This document shows positions 2,199 to 30,784 of a DNA stretch of 64,000 nucleotides, piece after piece (the stretch's first letter is position 1; the number at the start of each line of letters is the position of its first letter). Where the stretch lies: positions 5,792,001-5,856,000 of the forward strand of contig CM000151.3 of NCBI GenBank assembly GCA_000004695.1, in the 5' to 3' direction. The position numbers were made by a program, and so were the translations under genes. Source of the stretch: Dictyostelium discoideum (taxonomy: Eukaryota). The notes beneath the pieces were generated by a model that ran no database searches, was not told where the DNA came from, and saw nothing but the letters and a program-made list of their open reading frames with translations.

Positions 2199-4113
2199 AT
2201 GATAAATCAAAATAGAGAATTTGAAAATGAAAAAATAAAGCAATTTAAAAAATCTGGTAAAGATACATATCTATTACCAAAAAGAATTATAATTGGTGCA
2301 GTTTTACCACCAACAATGAATAGAAATCAACATGAAAAAGATCAATTCTTTGTATTAATATTTATAGTTTATTTAATTCAAAATTCAACATTATTTTCAA
2401 TTTCAAAATTAAATTTTATAAATATAATTAAAAATACTATAAAATATTTATATATTGATAATGATGAAGATTTAAAAGAATTTATAAAAATTAATAATGA
2501 CGATAATGAAGAAGAAGAAGAAGAAGATGATGATGATGATGATGAAAAAGAACATGAAAAAGAAGATGATGATGATGATGATGAGGATGATGATGAAGAA
2601 TTAAATAATAATTATAAATCATTAATTAAATTATTAAAAAGTGGTGATTATTATTGTTTAACAGGTACTGGTGTATCAATTGGTTTAGCAGAATCATATA
2701 TTTCAATATTAACATGGGAAGGTTTAATTAATAGTATATCAGAGGAATATTCATCATCATCAAATAATGAAGATACATTATTAAAACATTTAAATGAAAT
2801 GATTAGTAAAAAAGAGATAACATTAGTTGAAGCAGTTGATTTATTAAATTTAAATTATAATTCAAAAGGTTTAGATTATAAAAAAACAGTTTATAAAATT
2901 TTAAATAATGCACAACCAACCATATTTTCAAATCCATCACAATCAATTGCAGAGATTATTAGATCATTATCAGTACCAATTATAACCACAAATTACGATC
3001 ATCTATTGGAAACCTGTTTAAATAGACAATCATTCGATTCAATTGGTACAAATAAACATGGTAATAAATTCAATGACTTTAAAGATCATCGTGAAAAAGT
3101 TTACCATATTCACGGTTCAATGGATAATATCGATGGAATTTGTTTATCTAGAGATGAATATACACTATCAACACCATTTTTCTTATCAACTTGTGCACAA
3201 TTAAGAAATAAATCATTTTTCATTCTTGGGTTTGGTTCAGGTTTAACTGATGATCATTGGTTACCATTTTTAAAACATTCATCTGTAAATCATTATTGGA
3301 TTTGTTCAAAAGAATCTTTAATTAATAAAGGTACTAGAGAATTTGCACTTTCTTCAAATCAAATTACAAATGTTAGAATAGTTGAATATTTACGTGAAAA
3401 TTCTTCTTCCTATGTAAATTTCCTTTGGAAATTGGTTTTTAACTCAAATGTTGAACAAATTACATTTTCAAATACTTTAACCATTAATCAAATTTCAAAA
3501 TCTTTTAATTTAACATTATCTTGGGATTCAATAAATTCAAAACTTTTACATCATAATTCAACAACTTTAAATAATATTGATAATGATAATAATTATAAAA
3601 ATAATAATAATGAAAATAATGATGATAAACAATTATTTTACTATGAAAATGTTTTTATTAAAAAATTAAATCAATCAATTACAAATAATTATTATAAAAA
3701 ATCGTATGTTTTTTTTTTTTTTTTTTTTTTTATTTCTTAATTTATCATATTTATTAATATTTTTTTTTTTTTTTTTTTTCTTAAAAAAAAGTAAATCAAT
3801 TAAAGTTTTATTTTTTACAAATGATATAAAATTAATAAATTGTAAACCAATATTTATAGCTGGTGGATTTAATCATTGGAAAAAAGAAAAAGTTGAATTT
3901 ATAAAGAATGAAAAAACAATGTTTTATCAATTCGAAATTACTTTACCAGTTGGAAAAAATTTTTATCAGTTTTCAATTGATAATGACTTAAAATTAGTTA
4001 TTAATCAACCAACTGGAAAATATATAATGGATGAAAAGAAATCTGATCATTATTTAACTAAAAATATAATTGATTCCCAAATGAATCCAAATCCAATAGA
4101 ATTAAAATTTTAA
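2199..4113 (+). CDS. SIR2_2-family (FAM118/ThsA-like SIR2) domain protein with C-terminal AMPK-beta/CBM48-type carbohydrate-binding domain; exons 2199..3703 and 3792..4113
   Basis: SIR2_2 hallmark motifs are present: CLTGTGVSIGL (GAGxS-like Rossmann start), IITTNYDHLLE, VYHIHGSMDNIDGICLSRDEYT, SFFILGFGSGLTDDHW. A GTATGT donor at 3704 and an AG acceptor at 3790/3791 give an 88-nt intron that joins in phase to the 3706..4113 ORF. That second exon encodes IFIAGGFNHW...FYQFSIDNDLKLVINQPTG, matching the AMPK beta glycogen-binding domain (VYLSGSFNNW...YKFFVDGQW...P). An acidic D/E linker precedes the SIR2 domain. Confidence 0.6.
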
Positions 4114-4326
4114 AAATAAATTTAAATTATTATTATTATTTTATTTTTTTTTTTATATAAAATTACATTTTTTTTATTTTTTTTATTTTTTTTTTTTATT
4201 ATTTATTTTTTTTTTTTTTTTTCTTTAATTTCTATAAATTTGATTATAAATTTTTAAATATTTTTTTTTAATGAATCGAACTTCATTTTTTTTTTTTTTT
4301 TTTTTTTTAAATTTTATAATTTGTTT

Positions 4327-8439: not shown

Positions 8440-8560
8440 AAATTCAAAAAAAAAAAAAAATCGATTTGCAAACACATTTTGGTGTTAGCCCAGAACACCA
8501 CGCAAAACAAAAATCATTTTTGGCGGCTGGGTGGACGTGAAAAAATGTGTTTTTGAGGTC
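8440..8560. other. isolated GC-rich island with inverted-repeat/hairpin potential in an otherwise >85% AT intergenic region; candidate small ncRNA gene or regulatory element
   Basis: tcgatttgcaaacacattttggtgttagcccagaacaccacgcaaaacaaaaatcatttttggcggctgggtggacgtg. It contains the inverted repeat GGTGTT-agcccag-AACACC and a GGCGGCTGGGTGGACG block, and is flanked by poly-A/T. Confidence 0.3.
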
Positions 8561-21651: not shown

Positions 21652-22129
21652 ATTTATAATATAAAAAAAAAAAATAAAAAATAAAAAAAATAAAAAATAA
21701 AAAAATTAATATAAAATAAACAAAAGAATTATTTAAATTTAACACAACTACCAATTAATAATAATATTATTGTTGGTGAAGTCAATAATAATAATAAATT
21801 TTTTAGTAATAATAATAATAATATTATAGTAATAATAATACCTTATTAAATTTTAATAATAAATATAATTTAATTTCAAATAAAAATTATTTTAAAAATA
21901 ATAATTTTTTAAATAATAGAAATTATGGTAAAACAACACCATTCGGAAATCCATCTTTTTCGGATATAATTAAAGATAGTAATTTTTTATTATTAAAAAA
22001 AGATTATGATGATTATTTCCATTTAATTAAAACAAATATTGGTTTAAAATTATTTTAAAGAATGTTTATATTACAACTGCAATTGCATTCACTGGTACAA
22101 TTTTATCAGGTTTAATATTTTCCCAATTG

Positions 22130-22840
22130 ATGATCGGTAGTCCACAATCGTTGCCAACTGCACTGGGATTGGGAGTTGGTGGATCAATGTTGTCCTTAAT
22201 ACTTTGCAATATGCAACAACCTACATATACAACTTATGACACCATTTGGGATGGTCCATTGGATAATAGTGTAAAGAAACCAATTTTAAAAAGTGTTGAT
22301 AAAAGTGGTAAAAGTGTAATAGAGTTTGAAGAATTCAGTAAATCGGTTATACCAATTACAGTTGCCAATTATTCAACGTTACATAAAATGGCATTCGTTT
22401 CATTTTGTGTATTCAATGGAATTTCACTATCACCCACTTTCGGATTACTACCAGTATCTACATTTTTGGGGGTCGCAGCTTTAAGTGTATTCGTTACTGG
22501 TGGTAGTGTTTTTGCTGCATTAAAGATGAAACCTGATAGTTTAACCAAATATAAACCAATACTCTATGGTAGCTTGTTTGGTCTTTTCGGATTGGGTTTG
22601 GTTTCAATTGGTACTTCAATAATGATGGGTGAGAATACTTTCACCCGTTTCGCTCAAGAGTTTGATCTCTATTTTGGTCTTGCTTTATTCACTGGTTTAA
22701 CTGCTTTAGATACTCACAATGCTGTCAAAACTTTTCAAGAGGGTAAACCAGATTACATTAGAGTTTCAATTGATCTATTTTTAGATATTTTAAATATTTT
22801 TGTTAGACTTTTAAGAGCTAGAAGTAATAGCAATAAGTAA
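22130..22840 (+). CDS. Bax inhibitor-1 / TMBIM-family multi-pass membrane protein (first ATG 22130; probable additional 5' exon)
   Basis: C-terminal motif DTHNAVKTFQEGKPDYIRVSIDLFLDILNIFVRLLRA matches the BI-1 signature (DTQ…GDxDYI…LyLDfiNiF…L). Six to seven hydrophobic helices are predicted. The ORF track's 22127 start is a TTG; the first ATG is at 22130. The in-frame sequence upstream (NVYITTAIAFTGTILSGLIFSQL, from 22061) looks like the conserved first TM (HLKKVY…). Confidence 0.6.
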   Translation: MIGSPQSLPTALGLGVGGSMLSLILCNMQQPTYTTYDTIWDGPLDNSVKKPILKSVDKSGKSVIEFEEFSKSVIPITVANYSTLHKMAFVSFCVFNGISLSPTFGLLPVSTFLGVAALSVFVTGGSVFAALKMKPDSLTKYKPILYGSLFGLFGLGLVSIGTSIMMGENTFTRFAQEFDLYFGLALFTGLTALDTHNAVKTFQEGKPDYIRVSIDLFLDILNIFVRLLRARSNSNK

Positions 22841-22841
22841 A

Positions 22842-22898
<57 letters not shown>

Positions 22899-23543
22899 GT
22901 GGATAAAAAAAAAAAAAAAAAAAAAAGAAATAAAAAATATGGTATTAAAATTTGTAAATAAATAAATAAAGTTGTTATTAAATTTAATCAAATAACAAAT
23001 TTTATGGAAGAAGATATTTTCCAATTTTTTAGAAAACAAACAAAAAAAAAAAAAATAAAAAAAAAAAAAATATTATTTGAAAATCTGGCAAACGATCGAA
23101 TGTCAAAAATTGTTGGATATTATTTTATAAAAATCTGAAACCTATTTTAAAAATTTTTTATCTTGGTTTAATTTAAATAATGTTTTGAATTGGTTTTATT
23201 AAAAAAAAAATTATTTTTTATTTTCAAAAGTTATATATAATTTTTTTTTTTTTGTTTTAAAATGATTATTTTAAAAAGTTTTGTTTTTTTTTATTTTTTT
23301 ATTTTTTTATAAATATTAAAATTTAAAGAAATTATCATGTGATTATTTTAAAATTCAATCAAAATAAAAGATATTATTTTTTAAAAATATCTTTTTCGCC
23401 AAAAAAAAAAAAAAAACCGTCGTTTGTGTAAAAAATTGAAAACGGACCTTATTTTTTTTAAAAAAAAAAAAAAAAAAAAAAAGCATTTAATACATTTCGA
23501 TAAAATTCAAAATCAAAAAAAAAAGTTACCTTTTTAACAAAAA

Positions 23544-26897
<3,354 letters not shown>

Positions 26898-27252
26898 AAG
26901 AGATTATTTTAAATCAATTCTGTTGTATTATTATTGTTTTTTACTTCCAAAAAAAAAAAAAAAAAAAAAAAATTTGATCAAAATGATTATAATAAAAACC
27001 GCAGGGGTTATTTTTAAAAATAATTTGAAACAATTCAGTGATTTCATTTTATTATTATTTTTTTTTTTTTCTTATTTTTTTTTTGTTGGTTTTTTTTTTT
27101 TTAATAATTTTGTAAAATAAAAATAACTCTTAAAAATTACATGTTCTATTATTATTTTAAAATTTGTAAATAAATAAATAAATAAATAAAAAAAAAAAAA
27201 AAAAATAAATAAATAAATAAAAATAAATAAATAAAAAAAATTATACAATAAC

Positions 27253-27398
<146 letters not shown>

Positions 27399-27465
27399 TG
27401 TTATTAAAAGAAGTAATCACATCTTTAAAAATGATTTCCATTCTATTAATAAAGAAATTGATTCA

Positions 27466-27678
27466 ATGAAAGAAAATAATGAAAAAAAAGAGGATAAAAT
27501 TTTTCAAGAAATTAAAAAATTAAAATTAGAAATGGAATTATTAAGAAAGGATAATTTATCATTTAAAACAACAATACAATCTCTATCAGATTCTATAAAT
27601 AGTTTGTCAAGTGTTGAATCAAAATATGATTCTGACATTTATTACAATGACGATGAATATTCAACTATCTACTTGTAA
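27466..27678 (+). CDS. small ORF (70 aa, coiled-coil-like); doubtful gene
   Basis: ATG ORF MKENNEKKEDKIFQEIKKLKLEMELLRKDNLSFKTTIQSLSDSINSL… No homolog recognised; may be an exon or spurious. Confidence 0.2.
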   Translation: MKENNEKKEDKIFQEIKKLKLEMELLRKDNLSFKTTIQSLSDSINSLSSVESKYDSDIYYNDDEYSTIYL

Positions 27679-27989
27679 AAATAAAAATAAAATTGTATAA
27701 ATAAAAATAAAAATATAATTGTATAAATAAATAATGTAAATAAAAATAAAAAAATAAAAAATTTAAACTTTAAATGAAAACTTTAACTTTATTTTATTTA
27801 ATTTTTTGTCTCTAATTTTCTAATCTTGGATACCTTTATTTAAATTATAAAAATTATAAACTATTTAAATTTTGAGAAATTAAAAAAAAAAAAAAAAAGG
27901 GTTAAAATTTTAAGTTACCTTAATTAAATGAAAATAATAAAAAAACATTAATAATGATAGAGATTAATTTTTATTGAAAAATATAATAT

Positions 27990-29284
27990 TGAATTATTAT
28001 TTAGTTGGAAGTTGTTGAAATTTTTTTGAGGAGGTAGACTATTAGGGTATGTTAATAAATCATTAAATCCCATATGTGTAATTTATTTTGTAACATACAC
28101 TGCACAATATTATTGAGCATCATTGCAATAATATTCAAAAAAAAGGTTATCCAACGGTAACGGCCTGAGGGTATTCGATAAATATTTCTATTCTTGATGT
28201 CCATAGAATTTCTATAAAGTAAATATACAACAGGAGTTATATGAACTATAAGAGTATATGCAGAAAAAAACCTGGAGCATCATTTTTTCACATTTAAAAT
28301 TGGATTGACCAATGAATCTTTACCATATGAATATACACCCACAATATTTGTGGAACCCTGTCTTTAAGAATTGAGGAATTTCTTTTTAAAATGTTTTAAA
28401 TCGATTTCTGAAATATAGTTGGTAATTTCTTTATCATTTCTCTTTCTAATTCTCTTAAAAAAATTAATAAACTTATAAATATTAATAAAAAGAGATGTTT
28501 AATCTGGGAATATGCTTTCATTTCCCCGAATTCAGATCCTGGTTGATCAACCTTACTAAAAGAAGATACAACAATACTATCAAGTGAAATTCCTGGATCT
28601 TGACTATTTCTTTACGTTGGGCAGTACCTAAAGCTCAACTCGAAATTGAAAGACGATACCAAGGGAACCACTAGAGCAGAGTACTTGGGTAAATTTGGTT
28701 AATTGAACGGTTTCTGTAGCTGTGTTCATTTTATACGAAAAAGAGAAAAAGGGTTTGTAAGATTTAGAATTATAATTGAAATCCAAAGAGAAAAAACTTC
28801 TTTTTGCTGAAATAGTCAGTGGGCATGTTACAATTTTGATAAATTGTCACAGATGGAAACTCTAAGTTTTAATGAAATGTTGTATTACACACTTAACAGT
28901 CATTTCTTTTTTCTCCTTGACTTCGAACCTGTGATCTTATTTTTTTTAAAGACGAAAAGGACAGACCCCTCAGGGAGTTGAACCCTGGACCAACTGCTAA
29001 CTTCTAACGTTTTGGAGACAATTACAATAAACCACTATGCTAAGGAGTCTTTGAAAAATAACGGAATGAAACACTTTGCTAAGCAGCCATTTTATACACA
29101 AGCGGTTATAAAAACATTAAGAATCAAATCAAAGCAACGGCCAGAAGAACAAAATAAATTAGACTCACTAATCTCGCTAAAGCTATTACAATTTAGCAGA
29201 CAATGGAACTCACCTCTTCACGCAATAGAACTTCCTAAACATCTCAAAAAATACAATAATTCACTCAGTACTTTCTATAAATAA

Positions 29285-29358
<74 letters not shown>

Positions 29359-29797
29359 GGAACCAAGTTAATCAGAAAATTTCCAGATTTTTAACTTTTT
29401 AAAGTAAAATAAAAAAATAGAAAGAAAAAAAGATGAAAATTACAAACAACACCACAAATATTAAGCAACACAAATGCCTACAAAAAATAAGTGAAATTGT
29501 GGATAAAACTCAAACAAAAAAAAAACAATTCAAATATGTCATCAACATCAATCATTAAGCTGATGATAAAATAAAAAAAGATTTGGAAAAAAATTTGGAC
29601 AAAAAAGATGTTTTAATCAAAAGTAATAATACAATTCAAAATTCCAAACAAAAAAAAAAAAAAAAAAAAGTAAACTACACAACCCCTCTTTTAGAGACCC
29701 TGTAAAAAAAAAAAACTAAAAATAAAATGAGATTTAGCATCTCAAGCAGAAGCAACTAATAATTGCCTTATCCAATTCAAAAAAAAAAGAGCCATTT

Positions 29798-29841
<44 letters not shown>

Positions 29842-30340
29842 ATACAACCTTAAAAGGCACCTGTAATATTTAATAATAAAATGAGATATCTCAAGAATAA
29901 GCAACTAAAAATTGCGTTATTCCATTCTAAAAAAAACGGAGCCATTTTTTGGAGAAAATTACAAGAAACCACTATGCTAAGTTGTCATCGAAAAATAAGT
30001 GGGTGAAACACTATGCTAAGGAGTCATCGAAAAACCAAATGGGTGAATTTCAAGTGAAAAATGAGATCGAAAAAAACAACCAACAACAATCCTTTTTTTG
30101 ATTTTTTCATTTTTCATATAGAAAGACTTAAAAAAAAACCTGGAATCAAGTTAAAAATCTGGTAATTTTCTGATTAACTTTTTAAAGTAAAATAAAAAAA
30201 ATTAAAAAAAAATAAAATGAAAATTACAAACAACACCAAATATTAAGCAATACAAATGCATACAAAAAATAAGCGCAATTGTGGACAAAACACAAATAAA
30301 AAAACAATTCAAATATGTCATCAACCTGATGTTTTATAAC
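27990..30340. mobile_element. ORF-free cluster of degenerate, partially repeated units with poly(A) boundaries; most likely decayed retroelement fragments (TRE-like non-LTR 3' ends in tandem). Family not determined
   Basis: Composition shifts from the ~85% AT flank to ~60-65% AT. Three unit boundaries each consist of an oligo(A) run followed by the same head motif: cctggagcat (28271), cctgggaacc (29355), cctggaatca (30139). A 69-nt poly(A) lies at 29285..29353. An internal ~200-bp segment is duplicated (29354..29570 and 30139..30340), and ~80-bp segments are duplicated (29010..29090 vs 29945..30025; 29700..29800 vs 29860..29950). No ORF exceeds 90 codons on either strand. Confidence 0.4.
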
Positions 30341-30784
30341 AATCAAAGCCTGTTAAATTAAAAAAAACTATAAATAAAATGAGAACAAGTTACAATTCAT
30401 TTTATAACTAAAATACAACTAAAATACAACTTAAATACAAATAAAATGCAAACTACATAAAAAAAAAAAATCCAGCCAAAAACTTTGATTCTAAGGTTTC
30501 GTAACCATTTTTTGAATATATGCCTCTTCCAATTGTCAATAATTTAATAAAATTTTAGAAAAAAAAAAAAAATATTTTTTTATTATATACACCACTGAGA
30601 TTGGTCAAATTTATTTACTATTTATATTATATTTATTTATTAAAATTATTTATACATTAAAAATTAAATAACAATTTTGTTATCTTTTTTTTCTTTTTTC
30701 TTTTTTTTCTTTTTTCTTTTTTTTTTTTTTGATATATACCACCAACACTAGACATCTATTTAATTGATTTAATGTTTTTGTTTT

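Follow-up and report, generated by a model that had tools for sequence, protein, structure and literature searches.

What occupies positions 27990-30340 of a 64,000-nucleotide stretch of Dictyostelium discoideum DNA (GenBank assembly GCA_000004695.1, contig CM000151.3, positions 5,792,001 to 5,856,000; hereafter the window), where short blocks of sequence recur next to runs of A? An earlier note, made from the letters alone, read the region as a decayed cluster of tandem poly(A)-tailed retroelements of the TRE type, either robbed of its target tRNA gene or belonging to a different, non-autonomous family. Our analysis gives a more specific answer, in which we have high confidence: the region is very probably a tRNA-Trp(CCA) gene with a stack of fragments of the retrotransposon TRE5-A on its upstream side. 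TRE5-A, formerly DRE, is a tRNA-gene-targeted retrotransposon of D. discoideum, of the L1 clade and without long terminal repeats (non-LTR). Its second open reading frame (ORF2) encodes the endonuclease, reverse transcriptase (RT) and zinc finger of that clade, and the ORF1 protein is about 51 kDa.

The inner insertion and the tRNA-Trp gene

The concatenated stop-free frames of the region, searched against a large protein collection, matched Dictyostelium proteins only. DNA around the ORF2 homologues was fetched, giving four reference loci (L001-L004), whose elements adjoin tRNA-Met, -Gly, -Asp and -Val genes. The element at L001 is full-length. It starts 48 bp upstream of a tRNA-Asp gene on the opposite strand, and its 5′ part comprises an A-rich module with an internal repeat of ~100 bp, an A-run and a module carrying the ORF1 start codon. 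Next come ORF1 and ORF2, then, after an A-run, a further copy of the ORF1-start module (98.8% identical to the first) and another A-run; the 3′ end consists of a ~130-bp terminal module, an A12 tail and a 13-bp target-site duplication (TSD).

The published structure of TRE5-A is AB-ORF1-ORF2-BC, with an A-module of 200 bp, a B-module of 290 bp that contains the ORF1 start, and a C-module of 134-137 bp; the 3′ B-module is specific to TRE5-A, being absent from TRE5-B and TRE5-C, and TRE5-C ends in a C-module ~78% identical to that of TRE5-A (PMC3159450). The layout of L001 matches this description, and the repeated ‘head’ of the present region is the TRE5-A B-module. Integration occurs 40-54 bp upstream of a tRNA gene, element and tRNA facing each other by their 5′ ends (PMC3159450, PMC5911963). 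In the published mechanism, RNA polymerase III (Pol III) factors on the tRNA gene guide the element (TFIIIC on the A and B boxes, TFIIIB upstream), and TRE5-A enters ~48 bp upstream by target-primed reverse transcription, its 5′ end always facing the tRNA.

The features nearest the tRNA gene are as follows.

28919-28929, minus strand: external B box, GGTTCGAAGTC, ~35 nt downstream of tRNA-Trp
28963-29049, minus strand: tRNA-Trp(CCA) gene, placed by ARAGORN, Rfam model RF00005 and orthologue identity
28973-28985, minus strand: internal B box and T-arm of tRNA-Trp, GGGTTCAACTCCC
29096-29284, plus strand: last 62 codons and stop of ORF2, copy (i), by protein and DNA homology
29285-29354, plus strand: internal run of 70 A (A70), copy (i), between the ORF2 stop and the 3′ B-module
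29355-29649, plus strand: 3′ B-module of copy (i), or head 1, 86-93% identical to the B-modules of L001-L004
29650-29669, plus strand: A20 run of copy (i), preceding the C-module
29670-29778, plus strand: C-module of copy (i), collinear with the C-modules of the four reference copies
29779-29788, plus strand: oligo(A) tail of copy (i), A10

The inner insertion, copy (i), aligns end to end over 29096-29788 with the 3′ part of all four reference copies, in the order ORF2 end, A-run, 3′ B-module, A-run, C-module and oligo(A). This collinearity with TRE5-A disposes of the suggestion of a different, non-autonomous family. The 5′ truncation point lies at 29096, inside ORF2. In translation, 29096-29284 is 98% identical to the C-terminus of P0001, and the frame also matches P0002 and P0005, D. 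discoideum proteins of ~1000 amino acids (aa) with PF00078 (RT); as DNA, 189/189 aligned bases are identical to the copy at L002, which has the full TRE5-A layout. The ORF1 start codon of head 1, at 29433, is non-functional in this 3′ copy, and the frame that it opens (29433-29650) corresponds to residues 1 to ~72 of the 444-aa ORF1 proteins P0006-P0009, which have at least four annotated AX4 loci. These 62 and ~72 codons are the surviving coding sequence in the window; the region contains no RT domain and, within 27990-30340, no ORF of more than 100 codons, in agreement with the original statement that no RT ORF survives. The homology of ORF2, ORF1 and the B- and C-modules to the reference elements likewise bears out the suspicion that these are remains of a TRE-type non-LTR element.

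The alignable part of the C-module in copy (i) is 109 bp, its AT-rich start varying between copies. In each of the five sequences (the window and L001-L004) homology breaks off exactly behind ...CCAATTC(A)n, and as these are unrelated past the tail, this is the true 3′ end of the element. Between the 5′ end of tRNA-Trp (29049) and the element start (29096), which lie on opposite strands, is a spacer of 46 bp; the control elements start 48 bp (L001), 46 bp (L002) and 48 bp (L003) from their tRNA genes. Copy (i) thus shows a 3′ B-module, a C-module with oligo(A), the distance and orientation of TRE5-A, and a TSD.

The tRNA gene itself had been overlooked, the earlier note reporting none within 100 bp and supposing that the target might have been deleted. 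ARAGORN places a tRNA-Trp(CCA) at 28962-29050 on the minus strand, and the Rfam tRNA model RF00005, with a gathering score of 29, gives it 44.8 bits (E = 1.2e-7). The target is therefore present, 46 bp from the first element and in the canonical orientation. The Rfam alignment shows a 14-nt insertion after the anticodon, in the anticodon loop, which is an intron of ~13-14 nt at roughly 28998-29011. Run at the gathering threshold over the whole window, Rfam returned no match, tRNA-Trp included; the gene was recovered only with permissive filters on the sub-region. The two B-box-like motifs that had been thought not to complete a cloverleaf are accounted for as well, GGGTTCAACTCCC being the T-arm of this tRNA and GGTTCGAAG the external B box ~35 nt downstream.

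Four further loci contain the orthologous gene: L005 and L006, from assemblies labelled D. discoideum (GCA_054859355.1 and GCA_054859385.1), L007 from D. cf. discoideum and L008 from D. citrinum. The 87-nt sequence is identical in L005, L006 and L007, and in L008 the intron alone differs. With its cloverleaf, CCA anticodon, A and B boxes and conservation, the gene is predicted to be functional. The GGTTCGA of the external B box is kept at the equivalent place in L005-L008 despite diverging flanks. Such a motif lies +28 to +39 nt past the tRNA 3′ end in 10 of the 15 tRNA genes examined (the tRNA-Trp of the window and 14 others in L001-L008); in those 10 genes it stands about 55 nt from the internal B box. 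The external B box (exB) is a described feature of Dictyostelium tRNA genes, and its distance is quoted as ‘~100 bp’ in a review, so that the motifs seen here, 28-39 nt after the tRNA 3′ end, are closer (PMC5911963).

How, then, should the heads and their A-runs be read? Both real heads do stand directly after A-runs, as had been noticed: A70 at 29285-29354 and A9 at 30130-30138. Self-BLAST of 27900-30600 against the window pairs 29346-29546 with 30130-30325 at 85% over 205 bp, which upholds the repeated ~200-bp head for two of the three units claimed. The third, at 28271, lies outside the cluster and shares only AAAAACCTGGA with the other two, with no further BLAST similarity. This 11-mer occurs three times in the window against 0.26 expected, and because two of the occurrences are homologous there is one independent match; the occurrence at 28271 is an 11-nt chance match. 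In the form in which the head motif was first written, AAAACCTGGRRYCA, it fits 30135 only. Nor do the heads begin tandem poly(A)-tailed copies: the B-module sits twice inside a full-length TRE5-A, once in the 5′ untranslated region, with the ORF1 start codon, and once in the 3′ untranslated region, the A-runs before the heads are internal module junctions, and the true tails are the A10 at 29779-29788 and the A8 at 29929-29936. That the poly(A) at 29285-29354 is a retroelement tail was considered and ruled out, as the A-run preceding the B-module is internal in all four reference copies. The A70 is pure A, compared with about 30-50 nt at the same position in L001-L004, and behaves like an expanding mononucleotide microsatellite.

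A quite different explanation would be local segmental duplication of intergenic DNA that is not mobile. Within the 64-kb window, head, C-type unit and tRNA-flank unit are each confined to a 1.3-kb stretch, and the 82-bp tRNA-flank repeat (see below) does look like a local duplication. The head and C units, however, recur with 78-93% identity at four other genome loci, next to five unrelated tRNA genes, and there they lie inside elements with ORF1, RT-bearing ORF2, tails and TSDs. The single-copy case that the earlier note had envisaged does not hold; for the head and C units local duplication is already refuted, and as an account of the repeats in general we give it almost no credence.

Nested insertions and the outer element

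Beyond copy (i), the upstream side of the gene carries the following features; the first of them lies within the spacer.

29085-29093, plus strand: left TSD copy, AGCCATTTT, in the 46-bp spacer between tRNA-Trp and the element
29789-29804, plus strand: middle TSD copy, GAGCCATTTTTT plus a T-run, serving as right TSD of (i) and left TSD of (ii)
29805-29936, plus strand: fragment (ii), probably the older, with an A36 run, a C-module (29841-29928) and an A8 tail (29929-29936)
29951-30062, minus strand: original upstream flank, with tRNA pieces b and a and a partial third unit
30063-30138, plus strand: A-module block (30063-30129) and A9 junction run (30130-30138)
30139-30331, plus strand: 5′ B-module, or head 2, with the ORF1 ATG at 30217; it breaks off after ~190 bp
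30148-30180, no strand assigned: inverted segment, a 19-nt loop (30155-30173) reverse-complemented between AAGTTAA and TTAACTT
30340-30470, plus strand: decayed C-module-like remnant joined to the truncated B-module, with an A12 end (30459-30470)

Three copies of the target-site duplication GAGCCATTTT bracket insertions (i) and (ii). The string AGCCATTTT of the left copy repeats at 29790-29798 and 29940-29948, and GAGCCATTTTTT stands at 29789-29800, directly past the tail of (i), and again at 29939-29950, past fragment (ii). In the controls the TSDs are 13 bp (L001) and 15 bp (L003). Three copies of one target around two elements indicate two successive insertions at the same site, of which (i), nearest tRNA-Trp, would be the newer and (ii) the older. 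The C unit of fragment (ii) is 75% identical to that of copy (i) by self-BLAST (29812-29950 against 29646-29800), and fragment (ii) is 81-84% identical to the C-modules of L001, L003 and L004.

The 46-bp spacer is orthologous to an uninterrupted upstream flank in L005 and L006. Both loci share the tRNA-Trp gene, the external B box and the proximal flank with the window and contain nothing that corresponds to 29096 to ~30290, and are effectively empty sites. The call was made from stringent BLAST matches and direct reading of the sequences; lenient-scoring BLAST gave AT-rich noise only.

Farther out, 30063-30129 matches the opening 84 bp of the L001 element (3993-4076) at 82% identity, and matches the internal repeat of that element (4194-4290) as well. 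Head 2 is 81-83% identical to the B-modules of L001-L004 and 85% identical to head 1. Within the remnant that follows, 30349-30384 resembles the start of the C-module at 29699-29732 (self-BLAST). The remnant, 30340-30470, is orthologous to L005 11986-11891 and L006 8122-7900, and is therefore old, predating the split from those genomes.

The two heads differ in the orientation of one short segment, a point on which the earlier note was right. Positions 30148-30180 are the reverse complement of 29365-29397 at 32 of 33 positions (97%). Head 1 reads AAGTTAA-TCAGAAAATTTCCAGATTT-TTAACTT; the 19-nt loop of head 2, AAATCTGGWAATTTTCTGA, is the reverse complement of the head-1 loop with one mismatch. 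The same segment also matches L002 and L004 in reverse complement, both of which share the heptamers, and all other B-module copies in the alignments and scans are oriented like head 1 (a regular-expression scan caught 5 of ~10 copies, the rest coming from alignment and reversed BLAST matches). The inversion is real and so far unique to head 2. We infer that it most likely arose by a hairpin or template-switch replication error. Hairpin-loop micro-inversions have been described for template-switch mutations and for hairpin loops of chloroplast DNA. As in those cases, a short loop is exactly reverse-complemented between perfect 7-nt inverted repeats and the sequence is collinear on both sides; unlike them, the present example lies in the untranslated region of a dead retrotransposon, and its stem is A/T-rich and thermodynamically weak.

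Does the whole stack belong to TRE5-A? The fragments might instead derive from TRE5-C, TRE5-B or an undescribed non-autonomous relative. TRE5-C and TRE5-B use the same target in the same orientation, and the C-modules of TRE5-C and TRE5-A are related (about 78% identity). Identity to the TRE5-A C-modules seen here is only 75-84% for fragment (ii) and the 30340-30470 remnant, and L005 and L006 carry differently diverged B-like sequence at the outer position. Against this, copy (i) carries a B-module after ORF2 and before the C-module, a feature missing from TRE5-B and TRE5-C (PMC3159450). Its ORF2 end is identical, in the 189 bases compared above, to a copy with the full TRE5-A layout, and in the outer element the A and B modules match their counterparts in full-length AB-ORF1-ORF2-BC elements at 81-83% identity. 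We consider a source other than TRE5-A unlikely.

Several points nonetheless weigh against the assignment of the stack to TRE5-A or against parts of it. For the outer element the distance is 76 bp to tRNA copy b and 37 bp to copy a, where ~48 bp would be canonical. L005 and L006 lack a clear orthologue of its A-B part, which may represent a separate insertion or be the product of an internal deletion, of recombination between elements or of gene conversion. Fragment (ii) is a C-module of TRE5-A/C type which could be TRE5-C, and so could the 30340-30470 remnant. The TSD of (i) is just 9-10 bp, compared with 13-15 bp in the controls. The stem-loop at the inverted segment folds weakly (-3.3 kcal/mol, z = -1.4); as the fold has no significant stability, we claim no structural role for it. 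Lastly, the putative family assignment is drawn from structure, published descriptions and unannotated genomic copies rather than from a curated TRE5-A consensus.

For the stack of TRE5-A fragments, we infer an order of events from the homologies, positions and orientations, the TSDs and the empty sites. An old element would have come first, now reduced, probably by internal deletion or recombination, to the A-module block, 190 bp of the B-module and a decayed tail resembling a C-module (30063-30470). A severely 5′-truncated copy consisting of a C-module only (29805-29936) would then have inserted, duplicating the target GAGCCATTTTTT. A copy truncated inside ORF2 (29096-29788) may have followed into the same site, 46 bp from tRNA-Trp, pushing the earlier fragments outward and duplicating AGCCATTTT again. 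Later, one B-module would have had its 19-nt loop flipped between the 7-nt inverted repeats.

Partial copies of the tRNA-Trp gene

The upstream side of the gene also contains pieces of the tRNA itself, a 17-nt A-box piece occurring twice and a piece of 5′-exon length once.

29070-29088: tRNA copy c, in the 46-bp spacer
29951-29986, minus strand: copy b, like the tRNA-Trp 5′ exon
30009-30025, minus strand: copy a, the first 17 nt of tRNA-Trp, in a 39-bp unit

By self-BLAST, an 81-nt repeat links 29010-29090 to 29947-30027 at 84% identity. Cutting out 29096-29950 leaves an 82-bp tandem duplication, and the pieces form tandem units of 39 bp and 82 bp. L007, where no retroelement is present, has a copy of the 5′ exon only (8521-8556) 115 bp upstream of its tRNA-Trp gene. 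As this copy shares a base change and its end point with piece b, the tRNA pieces look like an old feature of the locus. The 115-bp tandem unit of L007 looks independent.

Two ways of deriving the pieces from rearrangement or from the elements were tried and rejected. Formation of piece b by a microhomology deletion joining the C-module to a second tRNA gene was discarded, GAGCCATTTTTT being present in three copies; a TSD with ancestral flank after it was preferred. A tRNA-derived short interspersed element (SINE) or other non-autonomous family was discarded as well, the pieces lying outside the TSD-bounded elements and the four reference elements lacking them at their 5′ ends.

It is also conceivable that the outer unit, 29951-30331 (pieces b and a with the A-B element), did not originate in place: 5′ transduction or ectopic recombination would have brought it whole from a different tRNA-Trp locus. 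In its favour, no tRNA 5′ end lies at the canonical ~48 bp from the outer element, L005 and L006 lack the entire block from 29096 to ~30290, and transcripts initiated upstream could in principle include flanking antisense tRNA sequence. The L007 copy, on the other hand, makes piece b look ancestral at a locus without a TRE, the b and c units form a clean 82-bp tandem repeat once the inner insertions are removed, and none of the four reference elements has tRNA pieces at its 5′ end. Import of the outer unit is accordingly a highly improbable account, and we retain the reading in which the tRNA pieces belong to the old flank.

A further idea, to which we attach little probability, is that copies c, b and a are a recurrent by-product of TRE5-type integration at this site. 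They could then have arisen through very long target duplications from staggered nicks, through aborted target-primed reverse transcription or through 5′ transduction. If this were true, pieces of the target that bear an A box would be remodelled and multiplied by the retrotransposon itself.

The surrounding locus and known systems

The window has a G+C content of ~22%, and its ORFs, ordinary eukaryotic genes, include the largest subunit of RNA polymerase, alanyl-tRNA synthetase, a P-type ATPase and a FNIP-repeat kinase. The adjoining ORF for an AIG1-type GTPase is 100% identical to a D. discoideum protein, which places the sequence in the D. discoideum species group. Compared with the window, GCA_054859355.1 and GCA_054859385.1 are 89-97% identical in genes and 76-88% in intergenic sequence, a divergence far above that expected within one species. 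In D. citrinum, the orthologous tRNA-Trp (L008 7977-8063) is turned the other way with respect to the GTPase and polymerase genes that flank it, and C-module-like fragments lie on the other side of the tRNA gene.

Downstream of tRNA-Trp, 27990-28918 contains no TRE5-A and is not repeated, as judged by self-BLAST and the other loci. TRE3 or Skipper-2 was not found in this part either, there being no match in 150 kb of other loci and no match to a transposable-element protein; a Pfam scan of the stop-free frames of 27990-28900 gave a weak eS28 match only, and non-coding ends of TRE3 or Skipper-2 fall outside these searches. Blocks 27920-28111 and 28390-28601 are common to the window, L005 and L006 at 79-87% identity. 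The 280-bp block between them around 28271 (28112-28392), bounded on both sides by AATRTT, is missing from L005 and L006, and 28602-28899 differs between the window and these two loci.

This last segment contains, at 28631-28729 on the minus strand, the N-terminal half of an eS28 (rps28) pseudogene, residues ~1-33 (MNTATETVQLTKFTQVLCSSGSLGIVFQFRVEL*). L005 (12632-12733) and L006 (8757-8846) contain the complementary half, residues ~35-67 with the 3′ untranslated region. Both halves lie at one orthologous position, 63 bp downstream of tRNA-Trp, with identical outer flanks, and run in the orientation of the tRNA; when joined, they are collinear with full-length eS28 (E = 1.5e-14).

Of the DNA that separates the tRNA-Trp region from the RNA-polymerase gene in the window, ~6 kb (21733-27723) is absent at this place in L005-L008, where the two are ~2 kb apart. 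The ORFs in this stretch are of host type: Bax-inhibitor-like, with FG-GAP repeats, and an EGF/teneurin-like ORF of 514 aa.

Taken as a whole, the upstream stack is of an already known and thoroughly studied kind. It resembles described TRE5-A in its modular layout, the insertion 46 bp upstream of the tRNA, the facing orientation, 5′ truncation, short TSDs and the many copies in the genome, and differs in nothing essential: the copies in the window are all dead fragments, one with a 19-nt inversion and one with an A-run grown to 70 nt. The stack is also like the clusters of Ty1 and Ty3 solo LTRs upstream of yeast tRNA genes, where one target defined by Pol III is reused to give an ordered series, the newest insertion nearest the gene and the duplicated target common to neighbours; unlike Ty1 and Ty3, TRE5-A is a non-LTR element that enters by target-primed reverse transcription and not through an integrase. 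What is mildly unusual is limited to the inverted hairpin loop, the stack of partial copies of the tRNA 5′ part and the split eS28 pseudogene.

Beyond the right annotation of this locus, the finding matters little, and the correction that it brings is methodological: an intron-containing tRNA had been overlooked, and internal A-runs had been mistaken for tails. What the locus offers is a textbook example of TRE5-A reusing one safe site on the upstream side of a tRNA gene, in a genome dense with genes, with nested TSDs and the empty sites of related genomes recording the order of events.

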